Part shown: piece by piece, positions 3,637 to 22,100 of the stretch
Numbering within the stretch: position 1 is the first letter of the stretch
Layout: the number at the start of each line of letters is the position of its first letter
The notes under the pieces: model-generated
The model's input: the letters and a program-made list of their open reading frames with translations, nothing else
Databases searched by the model: none
What the model was told of the DNA's origin: nothing
DNA from: Bacteroidales bacterium
GTDB taxonomy: Bacteria > Bacteroidota > Bacteroidia > Bacteroidales > DTGW01
Length of the DNA stretch: 64,000 nucleotides
Assembly (NCBI GenBank): GCA_049968755.1
Contig: JBMFQE010000012.1
Span: 12,608-76,607, forward strand
Direction of reading: 5' to 3'
Translations under genes and position numbers: made by a program

Positions 3637-5382
3637 ATGCAGAACAATTCAATTACATCGCAACTCACCGTACGCTTTGGCGAAGACATAATTTTTCAAC
3701 CAACAGTCGACGGGATTCCCACCTGCTGGGTCGATAAAACCAGACTTGTTGATGTACTTTCGTTTCTCAAAAACGAAGTACGACGTCCTTACCGCATGCT
3801 TTACGACCTTACCGCTATAGATGAGCGTGAGCGGACAAACCGTGCGACCTTGCCAATGCCGAGCGACTTTACCGTAGTTTACCATTTAACCTCTTTTGGC
3901 CGAAATGAGGACATTCGCATAAAAGTGCCGCTACAGGGCGAATACCCATCCATCCCCTCCATTACCCGGCTATGGGCCAATGCCAACTGGTACGAACGCG
4001 AAGTTTACGACATGTTTGGCATACAATTCGAGGGGCATCCATTCCTGCAACGCATTTTGATGCCAAGAAGCTGGCAGGGACATCCTCTACGAAAAGAACA
4101 TCCGGCTCGGGCAACTGAAATGGGGCCTTTTGTCTTTACCGACGAGGATCGCACGGCAGCCGATGAAATGTTACAATTTAAACCCGAGGAATGGGGCATG
4201 ACACGCAGTAGCGACGATGCCGACTTTCTATTTCTCAATCTGGGCCCCGATCATCCTGGAACCCATGGCCTGCTTCGGCTGGTTCTGCAACTCGAAGGCG
4301 AAGAAATAGTCGACGTGGTTCCCGACATAGGCTACCATCACCGAGGGGCTGAAAAAATGGGTGAACGTCAAACCTGGCACAAATTTATCCCTTACACCGA
4401 CCGTATCGACTATACGGCAGGCGTGATAAATAACCTGGCATACCTGCTTACTGTTGAAAAATTGGCGGGCATTGAGGTTCCTCCACGTGCACAGGTTATC
4501 CGGGTTATGCTTACCGAGCTATTTCGTATAGCCAGCCATCTGGTATGGTACGGAACCTTTGCCCAGGACATTGGACAAATTTCGCCCGTATTTTACACCT
4601 TCAACGACAGGGAACGGGTATTTGATATTATTTCGGCCATTACCGGTGGACGCATGCATGCCAATTGGTTCCGCATAGGCGGGGTGGCCCAGGACTTGCC
4701 ACTGGGATGGCAACAGATGGTGGCCGATTTCTTAAAACATTTTCCTAAAAGCCTGCGCGAGTGGGACAAGGTGGTCATGCGCAACCGCATTATCAAGGCA
4801 CGTACAGTAGGCATTGGCGTATTTAATACCGACGAGGCCATCGAATGGGGGGCTACGGGTCCCGCCCTTAGGGCAACAGGATTTGAGTGGGATCTGCGTA
4901 AAAAACGGCCCTACAGCGGATACGACCAGTTCGATTTTGATATCCCCACCGGCAAAAATGGCGACTGTTACGACCGTGCACGGGTACGCGTGGAAGAGAT
5001 GTGGCAAAGCCTGCGCATCATTGAACAATGCATGCGTCGCATGCCCGAAGGCCCTTACAAAAGCCAGCACCCACTGGCCACTCCACCGCTCAAAGAACGC
5101 ACCATGTACGACATCGAAACCCTAATCAACCATTTCCTGGGTGTAAGCTGGGGACCCGTTATCCCCGAAGGCGAAGCCATGATTCAGATTGAAGCGGCTA
5201 AAGGAAGTAATGCCTACTATTTAATTAGCGACAACAACACCTCGGCCTATCGCTGTAGAATCCGAACCCCGAGCTTTGCACACATCCAGATGGTACCCTA
5301 CATAAGCAGGGGTTACACCATTGCCGATTTGCTGGCTATACTTGGTGCCGTAGACTTTGTGCTAGCTGACCTTGACCGATAA
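3637..5382 (+). CDS. nuoCD: NADH-quinone oxidoreductase fused subunit C/D
   Basis: 581 aa in a single ORF. The N-terminal 30-kDa-subunit-like part ([13 protein letters not shown]) continues into a 49-kDa-subunit part ([13 protein letters not shown]...ADLDR C-terminus). Confidence 0.93.
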
Positions 5383-5412
5383 TAGTTGAAAAATAAAAAA
5401 TGTACTTAAAAT

Positions 5413-5877
5413 ATGCTAACAGAGCACGAAATAAAGGAAATTGAAAAAGAAATAGCCCTCTACCCCGTAAAAAGTGCTGCCTGCATCGAAGCCCTGAAAA
5501 TTGTTCAGCAGCACCGGGGTTGGGTACCCGATGAGCAAATCAAAGACATTGCCCAGATGCTCGATATGTCGTACGAGGAAGTCGACGGAGTTGCTACCTT
5601 TTACAACATGATTTTCCGCAAACCCGTGGGACGAAATGTAATACTTGTATGCAACTCGGTTACCTGTTACATGATGGGGTACGAAAATATTTACCAAACC
5701 CTTTCTAAAAAACTGGGGATTACATGGGGAGAAACGACGCCCGACGGACGATTTACCCTGCTACCAAACCCGTGTCTGGGCGATTGCGATCATGCCCCGG
5801 CCATGATGGTTAACCACGATCATTACAACCGGTTGACCCCCGAAAAACTGGACGAAATACTTGAAAAGTACAAATAA
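5413..5877 (+). CDS. nuoE: NADH-quinone oxidoreductase subunit E
   Basis: 154 aa with a thioredoxin-like 2Fe-2S Cys pattern (VCNSVTC...CLGDCDHAP). Confidence 0.92.
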   Translation: MLTEHEIKEIEKEIALYPVKSAACIEALKIVQQHRGWVPDEQIKDIAQMLDMSYEEVDGVATFYNMIFRKPVGRNVILVCNSVTCYMMGYENIYQTLSKKLGITWGETTPDGRFTLLPNPCLGDCDHAPAMMVNHDHYNRLTPEKLDEILEKYK

Positions 5878-5888
5878 AGCGTTTAGGG

Positions 5889-7166
5889 ATGGAAAAGCCA
5901 TTGACACAAAATATCAAATCCGACGGAAGCTATTGTACCCTTGACGAGTATCGTCGAAACGGCGGCTACGAGGCTGCACGAAAGGCTGTGCTCGAGATGG
6001 AATCGCAGCAAATCACCCAGACAGTAAAGGATGCCAACCTGTTGGGACGAGGTGGAGCTGGGTTTAACACAGGCATGAAATGGTCGTTTGTCAACATCTC
6101 CGACCCCAACGAACAGCGATATGTAATTGCCAATGGCGATGAAATGGAGCCTGGCACTTTTAAGGATCGTTTGCTACTCGAAGGAGACCCGCATCAGCTC
6201 ATAGAAGGGATGATAATAGCTGCAAAGGCTCTGAAGGCAACCAAAGGATTTATATTCGTTCGCTGGGCATACAAAAAAGCCCATGGCATTATTCAGCAGG
6301 CGCTCGACGAAGCTTACCGGGCAGGTTTTCTGGGAAAAAACATTTTTGGATCCAACTTTAGCTTTGACTTGCATTTACACACCAGCGTGGGACGTTACAT
6401 TTGCGGCGAGGAAACGGCTCTCATCAACTCGCTCGAAGGAAAAAGGGCAAATCCCCGCGCCAAGCCCCCCTTCCCACAAATTAGCGGCTTATTCGGCAAA
6501 CCCACCATTGTCAACAACGTGGAAACCTATTGCAACATACCCCATATCATCAAAAATGGACCAGCCTGGTACAAAACGCTGAGCCGCAGTAGCGAAGGCG
6601 GAACCAAATTATACGGGGTAAGCGGAAGGGTGAAAAATCCAGGGCTATGGGAACTACCGCTGGGGGTCACCATCCGCGAACTGCTTTTCGACTACGCAGG
6701 GGGTATGCAGGACGGATACCAGTTTCGTGGACTATTACCCGGAGGCGCATCCACCGATTTCCTGGTTGAAGAACATCTCGATACCCCGATGGATTTTGCA
6801 TCGGTAGCCAAAGCAGGCAGCCGGTTAGGCACCGGTACCATGATTGTACTCGACGACCAAACCTGTCCTGTAGCTTTTGTACACAACCTGATGAGGTTTT
6901 TTGCCAATGAATCGTGCGGCTGGTGCACCCCCTGCCGTGAAGGATTGCCCTGGGTCGAAAAAATTCTCGAAAAAATTGAACGCGGCGAAGGTACCGAAAA
7001 AGACATAGAAATTTTACGATTCCACACCAAATACCTTGCCCCCGGCAATACCTTCTGTGCACTGGCACCTGGTGCTATGGAACCTTTGCAAAGTGCCCTA
7101 AAATATTTTATCGAGGATTTTTACCGGCATATCCATGAGAAAAAATGCCCGTGGAAAAAAGACTAA
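5889..7166 (+). CDS. nuoF: NADH-quinone oxidoreductase subunit F
   Basis: 425 aa. Has the FMN/NADH site GRGGAGFNTGMKW and the N3 cluster motif ESCGWCTPCREG. Confidence 0.95.
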   Translation: MEKPLTQNIKSDGSYCTLDEYRRNGGYEAARKAVLEMESQQITQTVKDANLLGRGGAGFNTGMKWSFVNISDPNEQRYVIANGDEMEPGTFKDRLLLEGDPHQLIEGMIIAAKALKATKGFIFVRWAYKKAHGIIQQALDEAYRAGFLGKNIFGSNFSFDLHLHTSVGRYICGEETALINSLEGKRANPRAKPPFPQISGLFGKPTIVNNVETYCNIPHIIKNGPAWYKTLSRSSEGGTKLYGVSGRVKNPGLWELPLGVTIRELLFDYAGGMQDGYQFRGLLPGGASTDFLVEEHLDTPMDFASVAKAGSRLGTGTMIVLDDQTCPVAFVHNLMRFFANESCGWCTPCREGLPWVEKILEKIERGEGTEKDIEILRFHTKYLAPGNTFCALAPGAMEPLQSALKYFIEDFYRHIHEKKCPWKKD

Positions 7167-7200
7167 CTAGAGGCGCAGACGAATTATAACTGGACAAACC

Positions 7201-9483
7201 ATGATTACTATTTACATCGACGGCAAAAGCTACCAAGTAGAAGAAGGCGACAACCTGCTTCGAACCTGTATAAAGCTCGGCATAGACGTTCCCTATTTTT
7301 GCTACCATCCGGCACTAGGGTCGGTAGGAGCATGCAGACTCTGCGCAGTAAAACGTTACCGCGACGCTAACGATAAAGTCGGCCGTATGGTAATGAGCTG
7401 CATGGAACCCGTAACTGATGGTATGATAGTATCGGTAAACGATGAAGAGGTGAAAAATTTCCGCGCAGCCGTTATCGAAAGTCTCATGACCAACCATCCA
7501 CACGACTGCCCCATTTGCGATGAGGGCGGCGAATGTCACTTGCAGGATATGGTGGTAAAATCGGGACACACCTACCGCCGGTTTGAGTTTAAAAAACGTA
7601 CCTTCAAAAATCAATACCTCGGCCCCTATATTCATCATGAAATGAATCGTTGCATCCAGTGCTACCGCTGCGTGCGATTCTACACCGACTATGCCGGAGG
7701 AAAAGATTTTAGCGTGACGGGAGTTCACAATAAGCTGTACTTCGGACGATTCGAAGAGGGTCCTTTCGAAAGTATTTTCAGTGGCAATCTGGTAGAGGTT
7801 TGCCCTACTGGCGTATTTACCGACAAAACACTTCGTGCGCATTATACCCGTAAGTGGGACCTTACGAATGCGCCGAGTATCTGCAACCACTGCGCTGTCG
7901 GCTGCAACCTTATTTTGAGCGAACGCTACGGACAGGTGCGACGGGTAATCAATCGATACAACGATGAGGTAAACGGCTTTTTCATTTGCGACAAAGGACG
8001 TTTCGACTACGAATACATCAACAACACCAACACGCGCACTTTGCAAAGCACCATCAACAAAAGGCCTGCCAGCAAAACGGAGATTTTAGCTACGATCCGT
8101 AACCTGCAATCCAAGGGTCGTACAGTGGCTATTGGTTCGTCGGTGTCTTCGGTCGAAGCCAACTACCTTTTGCGTCAGCTGGTGGGGAGAGAAAATTTTT
8201 ATGCCGACATACCCGCTGATACGTGGGAAGTGCTTTCTACCATCCGCCAAATATACGATAGAGGCGAGGTACGGACACTTAGTGTGAAAGAGGTTGAACA
8301 GGCCGAAGGCTTGCTGGTGCTTGGGGAAGATGTGTACCGCACTGCCCCACGGCTGGCCCTGGCTATTCGCCAGAGCACGCGCAACTTGCCCTTACGAAAA
8401 GCCCAGAAAATAAACATCCCCGCCTGGCATGCCAATGCTGCTAAAACTTTCATCGGCCCCGAAAAGGGACCCTTGTTTGTAGCATACCCCGAACCTACCT
8501 GGCTCGATGAAATGTCGCTGCAATCATTCCAAAAAAATACTGAGGAAATAATACAACTGGCTGAAACGCTGGTGTCGCTGCTGGAAGGCAAAAATTTACC
8601 CGCAAATGCAATTACCGATGAGGCACAGCAGATACTTAATTCATGGGTCAATTGCAATTCGGTTGCCCTTGTTTGTGGCACTACACTGAAAAACAAAAAA
8701 CTAATCGAACTGTCGGCCAGGATAGCTATATTACTGAAGCAAAGAAATATCAGAAGTGGAATATATTGCATAGTGCCCAAAGCCAACAGCCTAGGACTCT
8801 CCATACTGGCTGAGCAATCCATGGACAAGCTGCTTAATAGTGCTGCAGCCGAACATGTTATCATTCTCGAACCTGATTTTGAGCCAGCAGAAAGCATAAA
8901 ATCGTGGCTTAGGGGATGTAAAAATATTACCGTAATTCAGCACAGCCTTAATGCTTTCACCGATATGGCCAGCATGGTAATTGCCTCGGCCACAATAGCC
9001 GAATCGGAAGGCACGTTGGTCAATGCCGAAGGACGCATGCAACGTTATTTCAGCGTGATGCCACCCCAGGAACAGATAGCTGCTGCCTGGAAATGGATAG
9101 CTGAAGCACAGCAAGACATTAGCTTTGATGAGTTGCTGGTAAAGATAGCCAATGACATTCCCCATTTCAAGCAAATTACCGAAGTTGCACCAGGAGCTGG
9201 CTACAGAATCAACGGCATGAAAATACCCCGCCAGACACCGCGTTTTAGCGGACGTACCTCCATGCTGGCTCATGTCAACGTGCACGAACCCAAACCAGCC
9301 GAGGATAAAAATTCGCCCCTCGCTTACTCAATGGAAGGAACCCGACTAAACACTCACGGGGCACTGACAAGTTTTTACCTTATGCCAGGCTGGCATTCGG
9401 TTCAGGCTACCAACAAAATTTTGCGAGAACTCGATCAGGTGGTCAATGCCCGTAGCACGGGAATAAGGATATGGAATAGCTAA
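7201..9483 (+). CDS. nuoG: NADH-quinone oxidoreductase subunit G
   Basis: 760 aa. Has an N-terminal 2Fe-2S motif (CYHPALGSVGACRLC), HPHDCPICDEGGECHLQD, CIQCYRCVRF, and CNHCAVGC (an N7-like C-x2-C-x3-C). Confidence 0.93.
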   Translation: MITIYIDGKSYQVEEGDNLLRTCIKLGIDVPYFCYHPALGSVGACRLCAVKRYRDANDKVGRMVMSCMEPVTDGMIVSVNDEEVKNFRAAVIESLMTNHPHDCPICDEGGECHLQDMVVKSGHTYRRFEFKKRTFKNQYLGPYIHHEMNRCIQCYRCVRFYTDYAGGKDFSVTGVHNKLYFGRFEEGPFESIFSGNLVEVCPTGVFTDKTLRAHYTRKWDLTNAPSICNHCAVGCNLILSERYGQVRRVINRYNDEVNGFFICDKGRFDYEYINNTNTRTLQSTINKRPASKTEILATIRNLQSKGRTVAIGSSVSSVEANYLLRQLVGRENFYADIPADTWEVLSTIRQIYDRGEVRTLSVKEVEQAEGLLVLGEDVYRTAPRLALAIRQSTRNLPLRKAQKINIPAWHANAAKTFIGPEKGPLFVAYPEPTWLDEMSLQSFQKNTEEIIQLAETLVSLLEGKNLPANAITDEAQQILNSWVNCNSVALVCGTTLKNKKLIELSARIAILLKQRNIRSGIYCIVPKANSLGLSILAEQSMDKLLNSAAAEHVIILEPDFEPAESIKSWLRGCKNITVIQHSLNAFTDMASMVIASATIAESEGTLVNAEGRMQRYFSVMPPQEQIAAAWKWIAEAQQDISFDELLVKIANDIPHFKQITEVAPGAGYRINGMKIPRQTPRFSGRTSMLAHVNVHEPKPAEDKNSPLAYSMEGTRLNTHGALTSFYLMPGWHSVQATNKILRELDQVVNARSTGIRIWNS

Positions 9484-9495
9484 AAACAATAATTT

Positions 9496-10443
9496 ATGGC
9501 GATAGGATTTATAATAGCAATTGTACTGTTGATGGTAATTACCATTGCAGCTGCCAACATTTACATCGAACGACGCTTGCTTTCGTTGTGGCAGGATCGT
9601 CGTGGCCCCAATCGAGCTGGTCCGTGGGGGCTACTGCAGGTACCCGCCGACATGATTAAGATATTCCTGAAGGAAGACTGGATCCCCCCTTTTGCCGACC
9701 GTACAGTTTTTGTCATTGCACCAACCATTGTCATGATAGTTACCCTGCTAAGTTTTGCAGTAATACCCTTTGCACCTGGCTTTATGGTGGCCGATTCAAA
9801 TATTGCTCTTTTGTTTTTTCTGGCCAACTCGTCGCTGGGTGTTTATAGCGTAGTGCTGGCCGGCTGGGCATCGAACAACAAATATTCTCTTATCGGGGCA
9901 ATGCGTGGAGCCGCCCAGATGGTATCGTACGAGGTGTTTATGGGCTTATCGCTGATGGGCGTAGTTATGCTGGCTGGAGGCACCTTTAGCATGCGCGAAA
10001 TCATTGAATCGCAGAAGGGTATGTGGAACGTGATCCCCCAGCTACCAGGATTTATCATCTTTCTCATTGCAGCTGTTGCCGAATCGCACCGTGCCCCATT
10101 CGACTTACCCGAGGCCGAAGGAGAACTGGTGGCCGGTTTCCATACCGAATATTCGGGAATTAAATTTGGTATGTTCTTCGTAGGCGAATACATTAGCATC
10201 ACTCTTATTTCGGCAACCATCGTTACGTTATACTTTGGCGGCTGGTTGGGTCCTGCTTTCCTGCCACCCTTCTTCTGGTTTATGTTCAAAACATTTATTT
10301 TCATAGCTTTCATTATTCTGCTGCGAGCCAGTTTGCCCCGTCCCCGCTACGACCAGTTTATGGCTGTGGGATGGAAAATTTTGCTGCCTATTTCGCTAAT
10401 AAATATTCTGGTTACCGCTGCTATACTTTTGTACAAAGGTTGA
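9496..10443 (+). CDS. nuoH: NADH-quinone oxidoreductase subunit H
   Basis: 315 aa polytopic membrane protein with [14 protein letters not shown] and [20 protein letters not shown], the ND1/NuoH signatures. Confidence 0.95.
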
Positions 10444-10461
10444 GAACTTAAAAGAACTAAC

Positions 10462-10977
10462 ATGTGGAGCATCATTAGAAGCATAGCCATAACCTTCACC
10501 CATGCCTTTCGCAAAAGGGAGACCAAGGATTATCCAGAAAAGGCACCTTTTCTACCTGCCCGATACAGGGGTCGAATCATACTGACCCGCGACCCTGATG
10601 GAAAGGAACGATGCGTCGCCTGCAACCTATGCGCAGTTGCCTGTCCTACCGATTGTATCTCATTGCAGGCTACCGAAGATGAAACCGGACGTCGTTATCC
10701 CGCTTTCTTCCGCATCAACTTCTCGCGATGCATATACTGCGGATATTGCGAGGAGGCCTGTCCCACCAATGCTATCCAGCTAACTCCCGATTTTGAGATG
10801 GCCGAATACCACCGCCCCAATCTGGTATATGAGAAAGAACACCTGCTTATCAAAGGACCCGGTAAATATCACGATTATAATTTCTACACCCAGGCCGGTA
10901 TCGAAATTGGCGGAAAAAAGAAAGGAGAAGGGCCTAACGAAGAACCCCCAACCGATGTACACGACTTGATTTATTAA
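10462..10977 (+). CDS. nuoI: NADH-quinone oxidoreductase subunit I
   Basis: Two 4Fe-4S ferredoxin motifs, [12 protein letters not shown] and [12 protein letters not shown]. Confidence 0.95.
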
Positions 10978-11024
10978 AAATCATATAATTGTGTGATAAT
11001 ACAAAATATCTATAAATAGAGTGA

Positions 11025-11032
11025 TAATTTTG
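11025..11032 (+). promoter_or_regulatory. Bacteroidota -7 promoter box (TAATTTTG) internal to the nuo cluster
   Basis: Exact match to the TAnnTTTG consensus, 28 nt upstream of the ATG at 11060, inside the 82-nt AT-rich nuoI-satD gap. It overlaps the second copy of the GTGATAAT direct repeat. Confidence 0.4.
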
Positions 11033-11059
11033 GGTATCAATATTTAGTTAAATTTTTCG

Positions 11060-11671
11060 ATGATAGCAGTGCTTACAGGCGATATCATAGGTTCGTCGAG
11101 GGTGAGCCCCGATAAATGGCTGAAGAGTTTAAAAGGAGCGTTTCAGCCGCTGGGAGAATCGCCCCGGCAGTGGGAGATATACCGTGGCGACAGTTTTCAG
11201 GCCGAAGTATCGGAACCGCTGGAAGCATTGCAAACGGGCATAAAAATAAAAGCTACCATTAAGTCCATAAAGGGGCTCGATGTACGGATAGCCATAGGTA
11301 TTGGTGAAAAAACATACCAGGCATCTCGCATAACCGAATGCAATGGAAGTGCCTTTGTTTACTCAGGACACAGATTCGATATACTGGAAAAAGAGAAAAT
11401 AAACCTGGGAATACAAAGTCCATGGCCGGATTTTGATCGGGAGATGAATCTTTACCTACGGCTTGCGCTGATAGCTATGGACAATTGGACGCCAAATGGG
11501 GCCAGCATGGTGCTGTTGGCGCTGGAACACTGGCATTTGTCGCAGGAACAGCTGGGCAAGCTGGTGGGCATAAAACAAAATACAGTAAGTACCAGACTTA
11601 AGCGGGCCTATTATGCCGAAATATTGGCTTTGCTGGATATGTTCAGGGAAAAACTAAAAACGAAGTTATGA
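11060..11671 (+). CDS. SatD-family-like protein (cyclase-like N-terminal domain plus C-terminal helix-turn-helix)
   Basis: 203 aa. The N-terminus MIAVLTGDIIGSS, then YRGDSFQ and VRIAIGIGE, match my recollection of SatD family proteins. The C-terminus SQEQLGKLVGIKQNTVSTRLKRA looks like an HTH. Not a complex I subunit. Confidence 0.65.
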   Translation: MIAVLTGDIIGSSRVSPDKWLKSLKGAFQPLGESPRQWEIYRGDSFQAEVSEPLEALQTGIKIKATIKSIKGLDVRIAIGIGEKTYQASRITECNGSAFVYSGHRFDILEKEKINLGIQSPWPDFDREMNLYLRLALIAMDNWTPNGASMVLLALEHWHLSQEQLGKLVGIKQNTVSTRLKRAYYAEILALLDMFREKLKTKL

Positions 11672-12393
11672 TATTATTTGTGAAGCTACTGCTGGCACAT
11701 CTGATTGCCGACTTTTTGCTGCAGCCTACCAGCTGGGTACAGGCAAAACGCAGGCATTTTATTGCCAGCTGGCAACTTTATCTGCACGCTTTGCTTCACG
11801 GGGTCATAGCATTTGCTTTTGTGGCCGACATTGCTTTTTGGCCCTGGGCACTGGCGTTAGCACTGGTCCATCTTGCAATCGACATAGCTAAACTTTACCT
11901 GATGCGGCGTTTCCCCCACATCGATTGGTTTTTCCCCGATCAGGCCGCCCACCTGCTTTCTCTCATTGCCATTGCTATGGCCATTACTAAACCACAGCTT
12001 GCAATCGTTTGGCTTGATAATCCTAAAATGTGGCTTACCCTCACAGCTACACTCCTGCTAACCTATCCAGCAGCCATTGCTATTAACCATATCATGCGCA
12101 AATGGACAAATGAGATTGAAGAATCATTAAGACTTTCCCTTAAAAATTCGGGAAAATACATTGGCATTTTTGAACGATTGCTCATCTTTACATTCATTTT
12201 ATACAACCAGTGGGCGGCTATTGGTTTGCTCATGACGGCAAAATCGGTTTTTCGTTTTGGAAACCTTCGGAATGAAAATAATCGCAAGCTTACGGAATAT
12301 ATCCTGCTGGGTTCTTTTGTAAGCTTGCTGTGGGCTGTAACGGTAAGCATAACCTATATTGGTGCATTGGATGTTGTTGCTAATAATAGATAA
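11668..12393 (+). CDS. DUF3307-type polytopic membrane protein (SatC-like partner of SatD)
   Basis: 241 aa. The N-terminal LLLAHLIADFLLQP (H-x3-D-F-x2-Q) is the DUF3307 hallmark as I recall it. About 6-7 hydrophobic segments. The start overlaps the satD-like stop (ATGA) and the gene ends 15 nt before nuoJ. Confidence 0.65.
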   Translation: MILFVKLLLAHLIADFLLQPTSWVQAKRRHFIASWQLYLHALLHGVIAFAFVADIAFWPWALALALVHLAIDIAKLYLMRRFPHIDWFFPDQAAHLLSLIAIAMAITKPQLAIVWLDNPKMWLTLTATLLLTYPAAIAINHIMRKWTNEIEESLRLSLKNSGKYIGIFERLLIFTFILYNQWAAIGLLMTAKSVFRFGNLRNENNRKLTEYILLGSFVSLLWAVTVSITYIGALDVVANNR

Positions 12394-12408
12394 CATAAAA
12401 CAGGTTAC

Positions 12409-12948
12409 ATGGATATATTATTTATTGTATCGTCGGTAGTAGCAGTCATTGCAAGTGCCATGGCCATAACCAGGCGCAATGCGGTACATGCACTGCTCTT
12501 CTTGATTGTATCGCTCATGGGCGTATCGATGATGATGTACACCATTGGAGCACCATACGCTGCAATACTCGAAATCATTGTGTATGCAGGTGCCATCATG
12601 ATGCTTTTTGTGTTTACGGTAATGATGCTCAACCTGAGTGTAAGCCCTGAAGATGAAAAACGTAAAACAGGGTTTAAAACATGGATTTTTCCGTTGTTTC
12701 TGGGGATTGTGTTATTGGGCATACTGGCAATAAGCTTTTTTCGCGATCCTTCGTGGAGTGGTCTGCATCAGGTTATCACGCCCAAACATGTGGGCATGCT
12801 TATGTTTAGCCGTTATCTTGTTCCCGTACAGCTGGCAGGTGTGTTATTGTTAGCAGCTATTGTAGGAGCTTATTATTTGGGACGTACCCGTAAACGCAAT
12901 TTACATCGATACTTGCAAAATAAGGAGGAAAGTTATGATACCCTTTGA
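12409..12948 (+). CDS. nuoJ: NADH-quinone oxidoreductase subunit J
   Basis: 179 aa hydrophobic protein with the ND6-like [16 protein letters not shown], positioned before nuoK. Confidence 0.9.
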
Positions 12949-13237
12949 GATACAAATTCTGGTTGCCGCCTTTTTGTTTGCCATTGGGCTGATAGGGTTG
13001 TTAACCCGGCGTAATTTGATTTTTATGCTCATGAGTGTTGAAATAATGATGAATGCCGGAGCCTTTGCTTTTGTGGCTGCGGGGGCACGATGGACTCAAG
13101 CCGATGGACAGGTCATGTTTCTTTTTGTCCTTACCGTAGCCGCTGCTGAAGTAGCTATCGCCCTGGCCTTGCTTATACTCATGCACAAACATTTTAAAAC
13201 TGTCGATACCAATCAACTCAATAGCCTAAAAAACTAA
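12935..13237 (+). CDS. nuoK: NADH-quinone oxidoreductase subunit K
   Basis: 100 aa with three TM segments and the conserved membrane Glu residues ([16 protein letters not shown]). Overlaps nuoJ by 14 nt. Confidence 0.92.
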
Positions 13238-15105
13238 TGATTATGACACAACCGATATGGTTATTACCCGCCCTGCCGTTTCTGGGATTCTTTATCCTGG
13301 CACTTTTGGGTCGATACCTCACAAAAAAATTTATTGCAGCTACCGGCATTGGGGTTATTGCGCTAAGCTTTCTGTATGCGCTTTATCTGGGTTCAACATT
13401 TTTAAATAATCCTGCACAGCGGATAGAATATACCCTCTGGGAATGGATACGTATTGGCTCGTTTGTCCCCACATTATCGCTTAGCATTGATGCATTGAGC
13501 CTGATTTTTATACTCGTGATCACCGGTGTTGGAGGGCTCATACACTGGTATTCGGCCGAATATATGGTAGAAGAAGAGGGCTACGCCCGATTTTTTGCCT
13601 ACATGAACCTGTTTGTGGGCTTTATGCTCACGCTGGTAATGGCCAGTAATCTGCTGGTCCTATATTTAGGATGGGAAGGGGTAGGTTTATGCTCATACCT
13701 GCTCATTGGATTTTTCTATCGCGATCCTGCCAACAACTATGCAGCACGCAAGGCTTTTATAGTTACCCGCATTGGCGACACAGCCCTTTTGATTGGACTT
13801 TTGCTTTTGATACGCGAATTTGGAACACTCGACATTATGACCATAGGCAATCACGCATCTGCAGTGATAGGGGGCAATACAGCACTCGCCACTGCAGTGG
13901 CGTTGCTCTTGTTGGGTGGTGCGGTAGGTAAATCGGCTCAGTTGCCCCTTCAGGTGTGGCTTCCCGATGCCATGGCTGGCCCTTCACCTGTGAGTGCGCT
14001 TATCCATGCGGCTACCATGGTTACCGCAGGGGTATACCTCATAGCCCGTACCCACGCCCTCTTTGTTCTCTCACCGATAGCCATGCAAATAGTTGCCATT
14101 GTAGGCGCTCTGACTCTGTTAATTGCGGCAATCAGTGCTCTTTTCCAGTACGACATCAAGCGCGTGCTGGCCTATTCCACCATCAGCCAGGTAGGATACA
14201 TGTTTCTAGCCCTGGGCGTAGGAGCCTGGAGCGCTGCCATCTTTCATTTTTTCATCCACGCCTTCTTTAAAGCCCTGTTGTTCCTTGCTGCAGGTGCCGT
14301 TATTATTGCTCTGCACCATGAGCAAAACATGTTTAAAATGGGCGGCCTTTACAAAAAACTACCCATAATTTTCTGGACTTTCCTTATCGGAAGCATTTCG
14401 CTTGCAGCTATTCCTTTCATCTCCGGAGGATTTTTTAGCAAGGACAGTATTATCTGGTATGCCTATGCCAGCGCCAATGGAAACATACTGCTATGGTCAA
14501 TGGCCACAGCCGGTGCCTTTATCACTTCGCTCTATACTTTCCGCATGATATTTATTACTTTCTTCGGACAAGAAAAATCTCAGATACACCACTTGCCCGG
14601 TAAAACCATGACCATTCCGCTGATTGTGCTTGCTATACTTACTACTTTTGGGGGATACATAGAGCTTCCGCATAATATTGCCCACATTCAGCTATTTTCC
14701 GACTTTCTTACCTCGACCTTACCTGCTGTTTCACTGAAAACAGCCCTTCCGTCGGAAGGATTATTTCAAATCATAGTGGCTATCCTTTCCCTTACAGGCA
14801 TCTGGTTGGCTTATCAGTTTTATTACAAAGCAGAACCCGTCTATAAAATTACGCCCTTACGGCAGTTTTTCCTGCAAGGATGGAATTTCGATAAATTATA
14901 CGACATTCTTTTTGTCCGACCATTTATTTGGCTTTCGAATGTAAATGCAGGCGACGCTATCGATGAAGTTTTCGACTACGCAGGTATTCAGCTTAAAAAG
15001 TTAGGCAATACCCTCGCCGTAACCGTCAATGGAAAAATCAACTGGTACTTAGCCAGTATGATTATTGGATTTATTATACTGATTGCATTTATGATCTGGA
15101 AATAA
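13237..15105 (+). CDS. nuoL: NADH-quinone oxidoreductase subunit L
   Basis: 622 aa antiporter-like subunit with WEGVGLCSYLLIGF and a long C-terminal extension. TAATG overlap with nuoK. Confidence 0.94.
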   Translation: MIMTQPIWLLPALPFLGFFILALLGRYLTKKFIAATGIGVIALSFLYALYLGSTFLNNPAQRIEYTLWEWIRIGSFVPTLSLSIDALSLIFILVITGVGGLIHWYSAEYMVEEEGYARFFAYMNLFVGFMLTLVMASNLLVLYLGWEGVGLCSYLLIGFFYRDPANNYAARKAFIVTRIGDTALLIGLLLLIREFGTLDIMTIGNHASAVIGGNTALATAVALLLLGGAVGKSAQLPLQVWLPDAMAGPSPVSALIHAATMVTAGVYLIARTHALFVLSPIAMQIVAIVGALTLLIAAISALFQYDIKRVLAYSTISQVGYMFLALGVGAWSAAIFHFFIHAFFKALLFLAAGAVIIALHHEQNMFKMGGLYKKLPIIFWTFLIGSISLAAIPFISGGFFSKDSIIWYAYASANGNILLWSMATAGAFITSLYTFRMIFITFFGQEKSQIHHLPGKTMTIPLIVLAILTTFGGYIELPHNIAHIQLFSDFLTSTLPAVSLKTALPSEGLFQIIVAILSLTGIWLAYQFYYKAEPVYKITPLRQFFLQGWNFDKLYDILFVRPFIWLSNVNAGDAIDEVFDYAGIQLKKLGNTLAVTVNGKINWYLASMIIGFIILIAFMIWK

Positions 15106-15117
15106 AAAATACAGGCT

Positions 15118-16647
15118 ATGATACTTTTAACCATCATACTTATTATTACCGCAGGAGCCTTTGTGGCTGGCCTCAGCTCGCGAATTCACCACCGGCTTCC
15201 TATCTATATTTCTGTGCTTAGCCAGCTGGGAGCACTTGTACTGGCTTTATGGCTACTGCTTTCATCTGGCAATATGAAGTTCTCACAAACCATATATGAT
15301 TTCAATGTACCTTGGATACCAGTGATTGGAGCCAACCTTCATCTATCCGTCGACGGTCTCAGCCTTTTGCTCATTGTGTTTACCCTGTTCATGGGCATCA
15401 TTGGCTCGTTGGTAAGTACTCGAATACCCCAGCCCGGATTCTTTCAATTTCTGTTTTTGTTGTTGCTGGGCGGCATCACGGGTATTTTCATGGCTACCGA
15501 TCTATTGCTATTCTTCTTTTTCTGGGAGATGATGCTGGTACCCATGTATTTGCTCATGGCTAAATATGCAGAGGTGGGAGAACAGCATGAAAATACACCC
15601 TTCAAATTTCTCGTCTATACTCAGGTAAGCGGCCTGATCATGCTGATCGGTATACTCACGCTTTTCTTCTTACACGGACGTCAAACGGGCATTTATTCAT
15701 TCGAACTATCGGATTTGATGCACACCACGTTACCGTTTGTGGTGTCCTTGCTTATTATGCTTTCATTTTTAGTGGCTTTTCTGGTTAAATTACCGGTAAT
15801 TCCGTTCCAGGGATGGATGCCAGCAGCGTTTTCTGCTTCGCCTGTAGCTGTAGTGCTAACTGGCATACTGGTAAAAACGGGGGCATATGGGATATTACGA
15901 TTGGCAATTCCGCTGTTTCCCGAGGCGTCGGTTATTTTTGCCCCTACCGCTATGGCGCTGGGTGTAGTTACCATCCTGTATGCTGGATTCATAGCTTACT
16001 CGAGTAACGATATTCGACGGATAGCCGCCTACAGCAGCATCAGCCACACGGGTTTTATACTTATAGGCCTATACGCCTTTAACCTGATGTCGTGGCAGGG
16101 AGTAATTTACCAGACGTTGGCCAGTGCCATTAGTGTAGGCGGACTGGCTATAATGGCCGACATTTTACACAAACGCGCTCAAACCTACGATATCACCCAA
16201 TTGGGTGGTTTGTGGAACAAAGCCCCGGTACTATCAGGTTTTGGACTTTTTATATCGCTTGCCCTGCTTGGCTTACCTGGTCTGGCCAACTTTATTGCCG
16301 AATTTCTGATCCTGGCCGGTGCATTTCAACAAAGTACTCTGGTAACCGTACTTGCCTCCGTGGGTATTGTGCTGGCAGCTGCTTATTCGCTACGTATTGT
16401 TCAAAAAATATATGTAGGAGAGTATAAAGGATCCAATCAAATATCCGATTTTACGCTGCGTGAGAAAATAATCATGGGTATACTGGTAGTTGTCCTAATT
16501 GTAGCAGGTTTATACAGCCGCCCCATTACACAGGCTACTGAGAAAGTACTGCAACAAACGCTGATAATAGATACAGGGCAGCCATCGTACCAATTGCCCG
16601 ACAATGCTGCCTCGGTAAAATTGTTATCAAACCCTCAAATCGATTAA
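15118..16647 (+). CDS. nuoM: NADH-quinone oxidoreductase subunit M
   Basis: 509 aa antiporter-like subunit with FFFFWEMMLVPMYLL and AYSSISHTGF. Confidence 0.93.
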   Translation: MILLTIILIITAGAFVAGLSSRIHHRLPIYISVLSQLGALVLALWLLLSSGNMKFSQTIYDFNVPWIPVIGANLHLSVDGLSLLLIVFTLFMGIIGSLVSTRIPQPGFFQFLFLLLLGGITGIFMATDLLLFFFFWEMMLVPMYLLMAKYAEVGEQHENTPFKFLVYTQVSGLIMLIGILTLFFLHGRQTGIYSFELSDLMHTTLPFVVSLLIMLSFLVAFLVKLPVIPFQGWMPAAFSASPVAVVLTGILVKTGAYGILRLAIPLFPEASVIFAPTAMALGVVTILYAGFIAYSSNDIRRIAAYSSISHTGFILIGLYAFNLMSWQGVIYQTLASAISVGGLAIMADILHKRAQTYDITQLGGLWNKAPVLSGFGLFISLALLGLPGLANFIAEFLILAGAFQQSTLVTVLASVGIVLAAAYSLRIVQKIYVGEYKGSNQISDFTLREKIIMGILVVVLIVAGLYSRPITQATEKVLQQTLIIDTGQPSYQLPDNAASVKLLSNPQID

Positions 16648-16649
16648 TT

Positions 16650-18047
16650 ATGTTTGTAGTTTTAGCACCTTTTTACATTACGCTAATAACACTTATTGTA
16701 GTGATGCTGGTTGTTTCGTTTTACCGCAACCACATGCTAACAGCAACCATGTCCTTTGTTGGCACCGGTATAGCTTTTATTACCCTATTCAATCATTGTA
16801 ATTGCTTGCCCGTATGGGCTCAGGATATGCTTGTCTTCGATAGCACCACCAGCATAATGCTGGGTATTACCCTGCTGACCACTATGGTGCTTATAATTAC
16901 AGGCTACAACTATTTTCAGCAAATAACCGACAAAAAGGAAGAATACTACCTGCTGTTGCTATCGTCGTTGCTGGGTGCAATGGTTATGATTGCTGCCCGT
17001 AACTTTGTAACATTCTTTTTGGGGCTCGAACTATTGTCGGTTCCGCTGTATGCTATGATTGCTTACCAGCGTACGCAGCGCGAGAGCGTTGAAGCCGGAA
17101 TAAAATATTTATTGCTGGCAGGTGCCTCTACAGCCTCGCTGGTATTTGGGCTTGCCCTCATGTACGGCGCCTCAGGAACCATGGATCTGTATACCTTTGC
17201 CCTGTATCTGTCTCAGCTGAAACAAATGCCTTCCTTTGTACTCGCGGGTATCGGATTGTTTGTGGGGAGCATCGCTTTTAAATTGGCGCTGGCACCTTTT
17301 CATGTATGGACCCCCGATGTGTATCAGGGTGCACCGGCCCCGGTCGCTGCCTACCTATCCTCCATCGGTAAAGTAGGTGCCTTTGTTTTTCTTTTACGTC
17401 TGTTACAGGAATCAAATATCCCAGCCAGTTCACCCATATTTTATATGCTGGTATTTCTTTCTGTCGCTTCCATGCTGACAGGTAACCTGATGGCACTGGG
17501 ACAGCAACATGTAAAACGTATCTTAGCCTTTTCCTCTATTGCGCACATGGGGTATTTGATTATAGCCCTGCTGGCCGGAGGCAACAATGGCTATCAGGCT
17601 GGCATGTTTTATCTGATAGTGTATATGATCAGCAGCGTAGGAGCTTTTAGCAGCATAGCCCTTCTCACCCAAAACCAGAAGGAACCTGCTGGCATTCAAA
17701 ATTATGAGCATTTGTTCCAGCGATCACCCCTGCTGGCAATTGTGTTTGTTGCCTCAGTATTATCGTTAGCGGGTATGCCACTGACGGCAGGATTTATTGC
17801 AAAAATTTACCTTGCCCTGGCCGGTGCCGGCGCTGCCCTATGGACCATGGTCATTTTGTTGGTTATCAACAGCGGAATAGGACTCTATTACTACATTCGG
17901 GTGATCACTGGCGTATTTAAAACGCACGATGCCCCTGAAAAAATACGCGTTCCTTTCCTCTCTGGAATAGCTATGGTCGTTATCCTTTTTGCTATCGTAT
18001 GGATAGGAGTAGCACCCGGTGGATTTTTGTATCTGCTAGTACCTTAG
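16650..18047 (+). CDS. nuoN: NADH-quinone oxidoreductase subunit N
   Basis: 465 aa antiporter-like subunit with GLELLSVPLY and AFSSIAHMGY; last gene of the cluster. Confidence 0.92.
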   Translation: MFVVLAPFYITLITLIVVMLVVSFYRNHMLTATMSFVGTGIAFITLFNHCNCLPVWAQDMLVFDSTTSIMLGITLLTTMVLIITGYNYFQQITDKKEEYYLLLLSSLLGAMVMIAARNFVTFFLGLELLSVPLYAMIAYQRTQRESVEAGIKYLLLAGASTASLVFGLALMYGASGTMDLYTFALYLSQLKQMPSFVLAGIGLFVGSIAFKLALAPFHVWTPDVYQGAPAPVAAYLSSIGKVGAFVFLLRLLQESNIPASSPIFYMLVFLSVASMLTGNLMALGQQHVKRILAFSSIAHMGYLIIALLAGGNNGYQAGMFYLIVYMISSVGAFSSIALLTQNQKEPAGIQNYEHLFQRSPLLAIVFVASVLSLAGMPLTAGFIAKIYLALAGAGAALWTMVILLVINSGIGLYYYIRVITGVFKTHDAPEKIRVPFLSGIAMVVILFAIVWIGVAPGGFLYLLVP

Positions 18048-18215: not shown

Positions 18216-19091
18216 ATGGAAAATCAGGTTTCGAACAGGAAGGTTCAGGTTATACTGACAGTTATTGTTGTCATCCTGGCCATAGCATTAGGCGCCCTGT
18301 ATATGCAGTACAATAAGATGAAAACCGACAACGCTATTGTTCAGGAGGCTCTGGAAGAACAAAAAGAGTCGCTGACCAACGAACTCAAGGACATGATGTC
18401 GGAATACGAGGGGCTGAAAAGTGAGAATGACAGCCTTAACAATCTTATAAGTCAGCAACAAGACAGGATTCGGCGGTTGCTTGCCATCAATGCCAGTAAT
18501 CTTGAAAAAATCAAAATATACAAGCGCGAGCTGGCAACCCTGCGCGAGATCATGCGCAGCTATATAGTGCAAATCGATTCGCTCAATCAGCGCAATCAGA
18601 AGCTTGTGTCGGAAAATTTAGAGGTAAGAAACGCGCTGGAGGAAGCGCGCAAAAACAATGAAGCTCTTTCGAAAGAGCACGAAACCATGAGTAGTAAATT
18701 GCAGAGTGCAGCTATACTTTCGGCTAAAAATATTTCCGTAACCCTGCTTAACAAACGCGGCAAGGAAACCGAACGTTCAAGCCGTGTGGCAAAAATTAAG
18801 ACCTGTTTTACGGTACGCGAAAATCCGCTGGTAGACGCCGGCGAAAAAATAATCTATCTCCGCCTTACTCGCCCCGATAATCTGGTGCTATCCTCTTCCG
18901 AACAGGATGTTATCCAGTACGAAGGACGCCAGATAGCTTACTCGGCAAAACGTGCCATCCAGTATGAGCAAAAGGACATAGACGTTTGTATTTACTGGGA
19001 TAATGCGGGCGAGTTAATTACGGGAGTCTATACGATCGACCTGTTTTGTGAAGGGAAACTCATAGGCACCACAACCTTTCAAATTAAATAA
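18216..19091 (+). CDS. membrane-anchored coiled-coil protein, function unknown
   Basis: 291 aa. One N-terminal TM segment (VILTVIVVILAIALGAL), about 150 aa of heptad-like E/K/L/N-rich sequence, and a C-terminal beta-rich region. No family recognised. Confidence 0.6.
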   Translation: MENQVSNRKVQVILTVIVVILAIALGALYMQYNKMKTDNAIVQEALEEQKESLTNELKDMMSEYEGLKSENDSLNNLISQQQDRIRRLLAINASNLEKIKIYKRELATLREIMRSYIVQIDSLNQRNQKLVSENLEVRNALEEARKNNEALSKEHETMSSKLQSAAILSAKNISVTLLNKRGKETERSSRVAKIKTCFTVRENPLVDAGEKIIYLRLTRPDNLVLSSSEQDVIQYEGRQIAYSAKRAIQYEQKDIDVCIYWDNAGELITGVYTIDLFCEGKLIGTTTFQIK

Positions 19092-19096: not shown

Positions 19097-19127
19097 AACG
19101 GCACGGAAAAGGTGCCGTTATTTTTTT
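19097..19127. terminator. intrinsic terminator hairpin shared by convergent genes
   Basis: AACGGCAC-GGAAAAG-GTGCCGTT followed by A+T7, 6 nt after the stop at 19091. It overlaps the stop codon of the minus-strand kinase gene. Confidence 0.7.
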
Positions 19128-22100
19128 GCATCCTTTTGCAAAATTTCGTTCAAAAGCCCAAGCAGAGCTTTTCTATTGATGGGCTTTTCGAGATACCCGT
19201 TAAAACCTGCCTGTATAATTTTTTTCTTATCCTCGGCCAGGGCATAAGCTGTTTGGGCAATAACGGGTAAGTGCGGAAATTGCTTTTTGATAAGCGCAAA
19301 CAGCTCGTAACCATCAATGTCGGGTAGTAACAAATCGAGCAAAACAAGCTGTATGCCGCTGTGTTTTCGCAGCAATTGCAAAGCAGTCTTTCCATCCACG
19401 GCATGCAATAACTGCACTCCCGTAGCCTCTAAACTTTCTTCCAATAAAAGATAATTCTCGTGTACATCTTCAACAATCAAAATCAGGGGCGAGTGTTTGA
19501 ATTTTTTTACAGGGGCTGGTTGCCTTGCTTGATGAGTCGATTTTTGAGGAAAGTTAAGGGGAATGGTAAAGTAAAAAGTTGATCCCCTGGCTGGTTCTGA
19601 TTCAAGCCAAATCTTTCCTCCCATAAGGGTAACCAGGCCATGACAAATGGAAAGTCCTACGCCTAATCCTCCATATCTTCTCGCATCGGACATATCAATC
19701 TGCCTGAAAGCCTCAAAAATCAACTGATGCTTTTCGACCTCGATACCAATACCCGTGTCTCGGACATAAAATTCAAGAACTTCAGATTTTTGCACATATC
19801 CAAACTCTATTCGACCCTGTGGGGTAAATTTTATCGCATTGTTAAGCAGATGTTCCAAAATTTGCTGCAGTCTGATTTTATCCCCCACAAGGGTAAGCGT
19901 CGGTTCGGATGGCAGGGTAAGTTTTAATTCCAGCTTATCGTTTAGACCCTTGTATATTAACTCTTCCGAATAATTGTTGTAAATGGTTTGCAGCAGCAAA
20001 TGCAGGTCGAAGGGCTCGTTGACCAACACAAGCTGACCCGAGGCAATTTTTGAAATATCGAGTATGTCGTTCACAATATTGAGCAATTGTTTCGAACTGT
20101 TTTTGATAATTTCAACATACAATTTTCGCTTGTCGGAGGTAAGATCTTCACGTTCGAGAAGAGCAGAGAAGCCCAGGATGCCATTGAGGGGGGTACGGAT
20201 TTCATGGCTCATATTGGCCAGAAAGGCCGATTTCAGCCGGTTGGCTTCCTCGGCTTTTTCGAGAGCTGCTCGCAAGTTTTCCTCCATTTGCTTTCGGGAA
20301 TCTATATCTGAATGGGTACCAATAATCTTCAACGGACGGCCGTTGGCATCGCGGTCGATAATTTTTCCCCGTTCCAGAATCCATTGATACTTACCCTGCT
20401 TGTTTCGAATACGATACTCAATTTCGTAATGCTCGGTTTCGCCCTTCAGATGTCTGCGGAGCTGAGCATAGTTTTTTAGGCGATCGTCGGGATGAATCAT
20501 CTGATCCCAGACCAGATGCCTGGGCTCAAATTCTCCAGGTTTGTAGCCCAACATGATATAGTTTTGGTCGTTGAAATATACCTTATCATTAAGTACATCC
20601 CATTCAAACACGCCATCGTTTACAGCCTCCATAGCCAGCACAAAACGCCTTTCGCTTTCGGCCAGGGCATTGGTCATTTTTTCAGTCTCCGATACGTCGC
20701 GTACCAGCATTTGAAACGACCCTTCGTGCACCGACATGGGAACTACTGTAATTTCAACTGGCACGGTCTTTCCTGAACCTGTTTTTATGCGCGTTCGTTT
20801 TTGATTGATTAATACCTCGCTACCCGATCCGGCATAAGCACGCAAGACTTTAGCTATTTTTCCCGGAAAAAAGTCTTCAAGGGTATATTGGCTTAAATCT
20901 TCACCAGGTCTAAAGCCTAACAACTCATAGCCTTTCTGATTAGCAAAAACAATTCTTCCCTGTTGAATCCAGAAAATATAATCTGGAGAAAATTCAACGA
21001 GTGTTTTGTAGCGTCGTTCGCTTGCCTCGAGCAGTTGATTGGCCTTTGTTTTCTCCGTAATATCGGAAATGATAATACCGAAAACATTTTCCTGTGGTGC
21101 ATACACGGTCAGCTCAAAGTATTTACCTAAAGGGGAATAATAATCTTCAAAACTAACCGGTTCGCCCGTCTTAACCACATGAGCAAACTTCTGCATCCAT
21201 GCCTCAGGTACAGCATTGGAAAAATCGCTCGCTTTCTTTTGTATGATTTTTTCTCGAGAAGTACCCACAATTTTCTCAAAAGCAGGATTAATATCGAGTA
21301 TGGCAAAATCTACCAGTTCGTGCGAACCCTTAAAGATGGGCTGGCAGAGCACAAAGCCATTCCCCATCTGGTTAAATAGCAATCGATATTGCTGCTCATG
21401 CTCCATCAATTTTAGCTCTATTTGCTTAATTTCAGTAATATCCTGAATAACGTTATGAATTTCATTAATCTCGCCCTTGATGTTCTTAAACAGGATAGGT
21501 GTATTGCGTATCCAACGAATGGATCCATTTTTATGCACAATTCTATGTTCAAAGGGTCTGACTTCGCCTGTTTCAAGGATGGTATTGATTTTTCCCATCA
21601 CGTACACCTTGTCATGCTCGTAAATCATATTAAACCATAGCAAGGGATTGACTGTATATTCGGCACTTGAATAGCCAGTAACATTCACGCAGGTGGGGCT
21701 GTGCCAGGTTTCGGTAATTTGTTTGTTTTTAACCTTATTGATTATCAGATAATCGGTGATAGTTTCGATAAGAACGTGCATTTTTCGCTCGCTCTCCATC
21801 AATGCTCGTTCGCTGCGACGGTGCAAAAGCTCCAGGGCTACCCTGCCGCTCACAAGCTCAAGGATCAGATGTGCCCAATCGAGCTGATGGGGAATATGAT
21901 TGAACATAGCGATGAACAGCCCAATTATCTCATTGTCGGGACCAAACAAAGGCATCCCATAGTAATGAATAGCCTCAGAAGGGATAAGTTTTGTCCACTC
22001 GGGGTATGATTCGAAAATACGCTGCTGAAAAATATCCCTTTTTTCCTTTACCACCTGCTGGCAGGGACAGTATTCGAGCGAATATTCAAAATTGGGTTGC

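Follow-up and report, generated by a model that had tools for sequence, protein, structure and literature searches.

The operon encoding respiratory complex I (nuo) in a Bacteroidales bacterium (assembly GCA_049968755.1) carries, between nuoI and nuoJ, two genes on the same strand that do not encode complex I subunits: a SatD-family gene, referred to below as ORF1 or satD, and a gene for a DUF3307 membrane protein, referred to as ORF2. Both lie in a stretch of 64,000 nucleotides (nt) of contig JBMFQE010000012.1 (positions 12,608 to 76,607), hereafter the window, to which the coordinates given without a locus name refer. The pair and the AT-rich spacer preceding it were found to form a stable insertion confined to one clade. 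The organisation of the insert, the folds and conserved residues of the two proteins, the repeats upstream of satD genes and the distribution of the pair in other genomes are described below, and the probable origin and role of the insert are discussed in the light of these data.

The gene pair within the complex I operon

The features of the locus are listed in Table 1. The order of the nuo genes is supported by the list of open reading frames (ORFs), by Pfam and NCBIfam matches for nuoA, H, I, J and K and by a self-tblastn map, and the same order is seen in the relatives L081-L090. ORF1 and ORF2 overlap by ATGA, ORF2 ends 15 nt before the start of nuoJ and a gap of 82 nt separates nuoI from ORF1, the remaining nuo junctions being overlaps or gaps of at most 55 nt; a first-pass annotation, made by reading the letters of the window, had given the coordinates, lengths and distances of the pair exactly. 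Thousands of homologues were recovered for each of the two ORFs, which are thus real genes. The insert shows no compositional anomaly, its GC content being that of its flanks. No terminator-like site was found on the + strand in the nuoI-satD spacer, and an Rfam scan of the whole window returned tRNA only, with no match in this spacer. Co-transcription of the pair with nuoJ-N is plausible, since the genes share a strand, the join to nuoJ is tight and no terminator-like structure is seen; the first-pass annotation had taken it as almost certain. The insert carries a candidate promoter and operator of its own at 10993-11040, which had been missed in the earlier reading.

Table 1. Positions of the complex I operon, the inserted genes and the candidate regulatory sites in the window
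Feature	Position	Strand	Remarks
Complex I (nuo) operon, complete	2436-18047	+	nuoA, B, fused CD, E, F, G, H, I, insert, J, K, L, M, N
nuoI, last gene 5' of the insert	10462-10977	+	NCBIfam NuoI equivalog NF004536, 295.6 bits (cut-off 212)
AT-rich spacer, 82 nt, carried with the insert	10978-11059	+	Candidate operator and promoter inside
Distal candidate SatD-box unit, GTGATA-N8-TATCTA	10993-11012	+	
Proximal candidate SatD-box unit, GTGATA-N8-TATCAA	11021-11040	+	Contains TAATTTTG
Candidate Bacteroidota-type -7 box, TAATTTTG	11025-11032	+	28 nt before ATG
ORF1, SatD family, 203 amino acids (aa)	11060-11671	+	Begins MIAVLTGDIIGSS
ORF2, DUF3307 membrane protein, 241 aa	11668-12393	+	Contains LLAHLIADFLLQ
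nuoJ, first gene 3' of the insert	12409-12948	+	Pfam Oxidored_q3, 120.7 bits

A shared derived character of one Bacteroidales clade

The arrangement nuoI-satD-DUF3307-nuoJ is present in six lineages, namely the window, L081, L084/85, L087, L089 and L090. The closest relatives are all nuo-embedded (P0006 and P0010 at about 80% identity; P0014, P0015 and P0017 at 64-69%). The genes outside the operon vary among the six lineages, with uvrA, OmdA, DUF218 or ksgA on the 5' side and moaC-moaA-moeA, an HNH endonuclease, a TonB receptor or a glycosidase on the 3' side. The distance between the DUF3307 gene and nuoJ ranges from -4 to 111 nt in the relatives. Five of the six lineages fall between -4 and 22 nt, and in L089 the two genes overlap by 4 nt. 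A scan of metagenomes with NuoJ recovered the insert in 5/5 loci with a NuoJ at least 74% identical to that of the window, whereas nuoI is followed directly by nuoJ in the approximately 45 loci that hold both genes and a NuoJ of at most 54% identity. The junction is likewise uninterrupted in three sister operons of the same type, in which NuoJ is 59-61% identical. The neighbourhood survey that the first-pass annotation had proposed thus yields relatives with an uninterrupted nuoI-nuoJ junction, both at 59-61% NuoJ identity and among the more distant loci. As the loci with a close NuoJ hold the insert and those at 61% or below do not, the arrangement is a derived character common to the members of a single uncultured clade of Bacteroidales.

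Synonymous sites are saturated among the three closest lineages (proportion of synonymous differences, pS, 0.6-0.75). The ratio of nonsynonymous to synonymous substitution (dN/dS) among these lineages is about 0.05-0.08 for SatD and 0.11-0.15 for DUF3307. These values resemble those of nuoG/M/N (0.04-0.09), nuoH/I being at about 0.01, and all of the family-invariant residues of SatD and DUF3307 are kept in the nuo-embedded clade. Purifying selection, saturated synonymous sites, retained invariant residues and a GC content like that of the flanks indicate functional genes and an insertion of long standing. A neutral insertion was considered and rejected, since purifying selection acts on both genes across six divergent lineages.

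The SatD-family protein

ORF1 gave no match to the Pfam SatD model (PF16264) even at E-values up to 10, and its direct matches among the Pfam and NCBIfam profiles are helix-turn-helix (HTH) models only. The best of these is an Xre-like antitoxin HTH at residues 148-182 (nt 11501-11605; 27 bits against a cut-off of 25.8), in agreement with the C-terminal HTH recognised in the first-pass annotation. A word-indexed search returned 2,466 homologues, and most of the ones at 54-60% identity have a precomputed PF16264 match. When the 22 homologues of alignment A1 were scanned singly, 19 matched PF16264 (best E 2.1e-10); these aligned homologues are 54-65% identical to ORF1 over 98-100% of its length, with E-values from 1e-68 to 1e-83. 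ORF1 was placed in the SatD family because homologues this similar match the model. Of the earlier assignment of the two genes to SatD and DUF3307, the DUF3307 half was thus obtained directly (see below) and the SatD half by way of homologues. The failed direct match reflects a weak Pfam model for the nuo-embedded branch, which lies at its edge. In an exhaustive profile search with a threshold of E <= 0.001, 2,453 cluster representatives (clustering at 50% identity) were recovered, the best 150 of which are all about 200 aa long or shorter fragments.

The AlphaFold model of SatD is of high confidence (predicted local distance difference test, pLDDT, 95.4; predicted template modelling score, pTM, 0.92). 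In this model, residues 1 to about 140 form a β-α-β-β-α-β palm resembling that of GGDEF domains and class III cyclases, and residues from about 145 to 203 are helical and include the HTH. Foldseek searches with the model returned, at a probability of 1.0, the GGDEF proteins DosC, DosP, SadC and DgcZ and the class III adenylyl cyclases Rv1264, Rv1900c and MA1120, with TM-scores of about 0.4-0.5 over 115-140 columns; a full-length match to the PucR-like regulator 3onq was weaker (probability 0.66-0.89). Among the family-invariant residues are D8, with which strand 1 ends, R42-G-D44-S-F-Q, located in the hairpin of strands 2 and 3, G80-x-G82 and N95-G-x-A. An hhalign comparison with the GGDEF domain of E. 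coli DosC places IYRGDSFQ on RYGGDEFI and VRIAIGIG on IALSLSIG; its probability is low (18.6%, E 1.3e-3) and it agrees with the fold match.

The SatD palm, as modelled, is thus a degenerate GGDEF/cyclase-like domain in which both acidic metal-ligand positions are kept and the GG and the fourth-position Glu are lost. What it shares with GGDEF diguanylate cyclases is the fold, the invariant motif being RGDSF and no match to PF00990 being obtained. In a fold-level comparison with class III cyclases, D8 and D44 stand at the expected topological positions and N95 is invariant, with no equivalent of the cyclase Arg identified; the Pfam Guanylate_cyc model does not match SatD. A search of the PDB by sequence with the SatD profile gave nothing significant, the weak matches being to HipB antitoxins (E about 0.2). 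Given its C-terminal HTH, ORF1 very probably encodes a regulator.

The DUF3307 membrane protein

ORF2 matches the Pfam DUF3307 model (PF11750) with 79.6 bits against a cut-off of 23 over residues 3-116 only, and all 27 aligned ORF2 homologues match it too. The structural model (pLDDT 87) is polytopic, with about 7-8 predicted helices. In alignment A2 residues H11, D15, Q19, H40, H44, H68, D72, D91, Q92 and H95 are invariant, and form HxxxD, HxxxH, HxxxD and DQxxH motifs across the first four helices. The C-terminal half (about residues 157-223) is equally conserved and extends beyond the coverage of the Pfam model, its conserved residues being G162, G166, E169, R170, W182, A191-K-S, R196-F-G, R206 and T209-E-Y. 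A Foldseek search of the PDB with the model returned no relative (best E 0.99), and the DUF3307 profile found nothing significant in the PDB by sequence. Paired HxxxD motifs recall the metal sites of membrane transporters and hydrolases, a likeness that serves as a lead only. The invariant His/Asp cluster, predicted to be intramembrane, is suggestive of metal binding or of a centre for catalysis or transport.

A phased array upstream of satD genes

In the regions upstream of satD genes, 2-4 units repeat in tandem every 28 nt and form an array in which inverted half-sites alternate in the form xxxATA-N8(T-rich)-TATx'x'x'. This array, whose units are termed SatD boxes here, was found across Bacteroidota satD genes and in a few metagenome-assembled genomes labelled Gammaproteobacteria (as an example, L001 9890-9990). 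Of 78 upstream regions of 150 nt, 52 contain the palindromic unit in its strict form, against 77 of 17,022 background windows, and the base autocorrelation of the upstream regions reaches 0.54 at a lag of 28 and 0.44 at a lag of 56 over a baseline of about 0.30. A scan with sigma-70 and terminator consensus sequences gave counts at chance level. As the sigma-70 consensus is not valid for Bacteroidota, the -7 promoter consensus of this phylum, TAnnTTTG, was used instead. The motif ATAnnTTTG, in which the promoter-proximal half-site is fused to the -7 motif, was found in 43 of 84 satD upstream regions as compared with 2.1% of the background, mostly 21-56 nt before the ATG.

The outer triplet of the half-site differs by lineage, is always symmetric on both arms and tracks the recognition helix of the HTH. 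GTG/ATG-ATA half-sites accompany the helix KQNA[IV]S[NST]RLKR, GCAATA accompanies KQSAISTRLRR, GGA/GGC-ATA accompanies [SN]Q[DN]A[VI]SKRQKR, CCGATA accompanies [TS]QSS[VI]SERQKR and ACGATA accompanies QN[TS]xS[ED]R. Because the half-site sequence tracks the recognition helix, the upstream array is a probable autoregulatory SatD operator.

In the six lineages of the nuo-embedded clade, the nuoI-satD spacers are homologous and 71-101 nt long. The spacing of the two candidate units of the window is exactly 28 nt. With these two included, the 64 kb contain only three matches to GTGATA-N8-TATCAC with at most two mismatches, a count which is at chance level (3 found, 2.2 expected). The third match, with two mismatches, lies at 42790-42809, at the start of an ORF spanning 42790-43371. 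No SatD box was found upstream of nuoA. An RNA hairpin may be an alternative reading of the upstream repeats for the family, as the strongly palindromic L001 array does fold as RNA (z = -6.5). The spacer of the window folds no better than its shuffles (z = -0.22), and the nuo clade retains ATA-N8-TAT half-sites rather than stems.

Distribution of the pair in other genomes

The distribution of the pair outside the nuo clade was surveyed with one genome per species of GTDB, and 80 loci were listed in which the identity of SatD to the window protein is 47-60%; that the nuo-embedded clade is missing from these loci carries no information on the coverage of GTDB. DUF3307 lies directly downstream of SatD on the same strand in 79 of the 80 loci, and the exception ends at a contig edge. 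None of the 80 has nuo genes within 10 kb of the pair. The neighbours vary and include acyl-CoA thioesterase-like genes (18 loci), RmuC (17), CarB (11) and UxaC (9), which look like family-level synteny, and no conserved functional neighbour beyond such synteny was found outside the nuo clade. The closest SatD genes outside the clade, at 63% and 60% identity, lie downstream of uxaC. No integrase, transposase or recombinase is present among the frequent neighbour clusters, SatD relatives are nearly absent from plasmids (5 of 72,556) and absent from phage records (0 of 50,697), and the PADLOC defence models did not match the pair.

The first-pass annotation had read the position of the pair as a functional tie to complex I. 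That proposal fared poorly, the pair being away from nuo genes in all of the listed loci and sister operons having uninterrupted junctions. An accessory or assembly factor of complex I is expected to be linked with nuo across taxa, and such linkage was found in a single clade of six lineages. A complex I-specific role for the pair is thus not supported.

Origin and probable role of the insert

On balance, the SatD/DUF3307 pair is probably a general self-regulated module that was relocated into the nuo operon and not a dedicated component of complex I. In this explanation, SatD would be a transcription factor in which a palm domain, probably binding or processing a nucleotide, is fused to an HTH. 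We infer that SatD, presumably as an oligomer, binds the 28-nt-periodic array overlapping the -7 box of its own promoter, and would thereby control its own gene together with that of DUF3307, to which it is translationally coupled. The operator, the promoter and both genes would have landed together in the short nuoI-nuoJ spacer of an ancestral member of the uncultured Bacteroidales clade. The insert would have been kept as the cell needs the module, while its promoter and the lack of a terminator would keep nuoJ-N expressed. As a side effect the pair would be transcribed with nuo, and nuoJ-N would probably gain additional transcription under SatD control. Given a candidate promoter and operator of its own, the pair (and probably nuoJ-N) would not need to rely on the nuoA promoter alone.

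Several observations sit less easily with relocation of a self-contained module. The insert is held in the same slot despite synonymous saturation and is tightly joined to nuoJ. The 28-nt-phased arrays are recognisable in most of the six clade lineages and are more degenerate there than elsewhere, and phylogeny is a confounder in the correlation of half-site with recognition helix, although this correlation is also what would be expected of a co-evolving operator and repressor. DUF3307 has 83 positions with a conservation of 90% or more outside the nuo clade, and 10 of them carry residues specific to that clade (G14, E28R, K31F, V173I/M, E183A, F187L, A190T, I214L, F220L/M and G221L), against 5 of 83 such positions in SatD; those of DUF3307 could fit either adaptation to a new partner or a long branch. 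In a somewhat improbable alternative, the pair has been recruited to complex I and regulates the expression of nuoJ-N or acts as an assembly or accessory factor; DUF3307 would then work alongside NuoH/J/K in the membrane, and a nucleotide signal would determine the expression set by SatD. Recruitment would account for the retention of the pair under purifying selection at one position in six lineages whose outer flanks differ, for the close DUF3307-nuoJ junction (-4 to 22 nt in five of the six), for the clade-specific substitutions at otherwise conserved DUF3307 positions and for an insertion point that falls exactly where nuoA-I end and the membrane-arm genes nuoJ-N begin, with a candidate SatD-controlled promoter upstream of the latter. 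Retention is, however, also expected if the cell simply needs the module. The pair has no association with nuo outside the clade (0/80 listed loci), sister operons function in its absence, nuoA is not preceded by a SatD box and the unchanged family-invariant residues suggest that the ancestral biochemical function has been kept. A more elaborate and quite unlikely variant is that a captured SatD operator and promoter split the complex I operon in two between nuoA-I and the membrane-arm genes, so that SatD with DUF3307 senses a nucleotide- or metal-related signal and, bound to the array, tunes nuoJ-N through an internal promoter, a roadblock or both. DUF3307, with its clade-specific substitutions, may in this variant have become a membrane partner of complex I, or a factor in its assembly, that is peculiar to the lineage.

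Whether the palm domain is catalytic is a question separate from that of relocation or recruitment. An active nucleotide cyclase or second-messenger synthase, with DUF3307 as its membrane effector or sensor, would make the module a signalling system and not just a repressor that senses a ligand. It would agree with the palm fold shared with diguanylate and adenylyl cyclases (Foldseek probability 1.0) and with the invariance across the SatD family of D8 and D44, which stand at the catalytic metal-ligand positions. Such activity is nevertheless unlikely, as the hairpin reads RGDSF and not GG(D/E)EF, neither Pfam GGDEF nor Guanylate_cyc matches, and the domain is minimal, at about 140 residues. 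Diguanylate cyclases need the fourth-position Glu of GG(D/E)EF, and this position is an invariant Ser in SatD. Degenerate GGDEF-like domains serve as sensor domains in PucR-type regulators, and it is such a regulator, 3onq, that gave the weak full-length match. An addiction-type (toxin-antitoxin-like) or selfish module, in which SatD as a repressor or antitoxin restrains a harmful membrane protein and loss of the module is costly, is very unlikely. It is suggested by the HTH of SatD, whose best match exceeds the cut-off of an Xre-like antitoxin model by little over one bit, by the weak PDB profile matches to HipB, and by a gene organisation that is translationally coupled and probably tightly autoregulated. 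In Streptococcus pyogenes, moreover, satD is reported to be the single gene that is accessory in the population and yet essential wherever present (PMC11323703), a pattern typical of antitoxins and repressors. Against these points, the pair is nearly absent from plasmids (5/72,556) and absent from phages (0/50,697), has no recombinase or transposase among its frequent neighbours, keeps a stable synteny within families and is not matched by PADLOC; the mobile-element enrichment of type II toxin-antitoxin systems is thus not seen in the plasmid, phage and neighbour data. DUF3307 carries enzyme- or transporter-like invariant His/Asp residues under purifying selection, and the pair forms one adjacent unit in every locus recovered.

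Other features of the operons and the window

The nuo operon tolerates other spacer insertions, as the P0010 lineage has repeats between nuoA and nuoB, in tandem units of about 134-138 nt that number three in L085 (1486-1882) and two in L084 (1612-1880). Each unit of about 135 nt contains an internal inverted repeat, GGATGAAACGAGCATG / CATGCGAGTTCCATCC, and the copy number is variable; the corresponding spacer of the window is 55 nt only. In L081-L083 (17036-18143), the moaC gene 3' of nuoN is shortened to 71 aa, as compared with 151-154 aa in L085 and L089. Next to it, a NUMOD4/HNH_3 homing-endonuclease-like gene takes the place of moaA-moeA, a pattern suggestive of disruption by a mobile endonuclease. 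In four distant operons with a NuoJ of 32-35% identity, a gap of about 700 nt separates the NuoJ match from nuoK (L138, L139 and L141, about 6470-7200; L140, about 2190-2890), and represents either a long C-terminal extension of NuoJ or another inserted ORF. L160, a sister operon lacking the pair, has a gap of about 500 nt between nuoH and nuoI (3850-4347) and one of 140 nt between nuoI and nuoJ (4861-5000), with no gene called in the latter.

The nuo operon of the window is of the 14-subunit type, with a fused nuoCD (581 aa) and with nuoE, F and G present (3637-5382 and 5413-9483). The nuo operon of Bacteroides is of the 11-subunit type without nuoEFG and differs in this respect from that of the window lineage. 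Directly 3' of nuoN, a 291-aa coiled-coil protein with weak Pfam matches only is encoded at 18216-19091 (+), followed by a convergent gene for a 1098-aa hybrid sensor kinase with multiple PAS domains, HisKA, HATPase and receiver domains at 19118-22414 (-), and a strong terminator-like hairpin (19097-19119) lies between the two genes. Further along the window are a RelA/SpoT (p)ppGpp synthetase/hydrolase (55424-57673, +) and a HAMP-GAF protein (58498-60201, -), further genes of nucleotide signalling whose link to the insert is not evident.

Significance

The SatD and DUF3307 families themselves were already known; what is new here is the stable, lineage-restricted arrangement, the fold assignment of SatD and the SatD-box array. 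For complex I, the insert is a modest curiosity. It is a passenger restricted to one lineage, through which an internal promoter under ligand control may have been added where nuoA-I meet the membrane-arm genes, and the present data give no evidence for a new general subunit or assembly factor. Its main value is as an entry to the SatD/DUF3307 family, which is widespread in Bacteroidota and beyond. Three handles on this family are provided, namely a GGDEF/cyclase-like palm retaining both metal-ligand Asp residues, a membrane partner with predicted intramembrane His/Asp residues and a candidate operator overlapping the promoter, and together they make DNA-binding, ligand and regulon experiments straightforward. 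If its proposed role is true, the SatD box and the recognition helix co-evolving with it would offer, independently of nuo, a first functional clue to a family that comprises about 2,500 clusters.

Comparison with known systems

No functional study of SatD or DUF3307 was found in the searchable literature, in which there are incidental mentions only; a search for DUF3307 returned one irrelevant paper and searches for the Pfam and InterPro accessions returned none. The remark in the first-pass annotation that the pair has no established biochemical function is thus borne out, as is its statement that no such pair had been described in a nuo operon, for which the searchable literature holds no account. 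A description of the 28-nt SatD-box array was likewise not found.

The nearest known counterpart is SatD/SatE of the Streptococcus mutans sat locus (PF16264 and PF11750), which has the same families in the same order and adjacency as the pair in the window. The original paper on the sat locus is reportedly that of Kremer and co-workers from 2001. The pair of the window lies inside a nuo operon, whereas that of S. mutans reportedly lies next to ffh. The window SatD also falls below the Pfam model, and the DUF3307 proteins of Bacteroidota have a conserved C-terminal half outside theirs.

Regulators of the PucR/CdaR type (such as 3onq) are analogues, in that they combine a degenerate GGDEF-like palm with a C-terminal HTH as SatD does. 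SatD differs from them in lacking a GGDEF_2 or HTH_30 match, in being half the size and in a domain arrangement that does not superpose (root-mean-square deviation about 15 Å). With GGDEF proteins and class III cyclases, SatD has in common the palm fold and acidic residues at two metal-ligand positions; it is not a member of either by sequence criteria, having an RGDSF motif and no profile match.

As regards the position of the insert, the nqo/nuo clusters of Paracoccus denitrificans and Rhodobacter capsulatus contain unidentified reading frames (URFs), same-strand ORFs which do not encode subunits and are co-transcribed with the complex I genes. The families and the phylum differ from those of the window pair and the URFs are not known to have an operator or promoter of their own. 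With these precedents, a passenger in a nuo operon is unsurprising.

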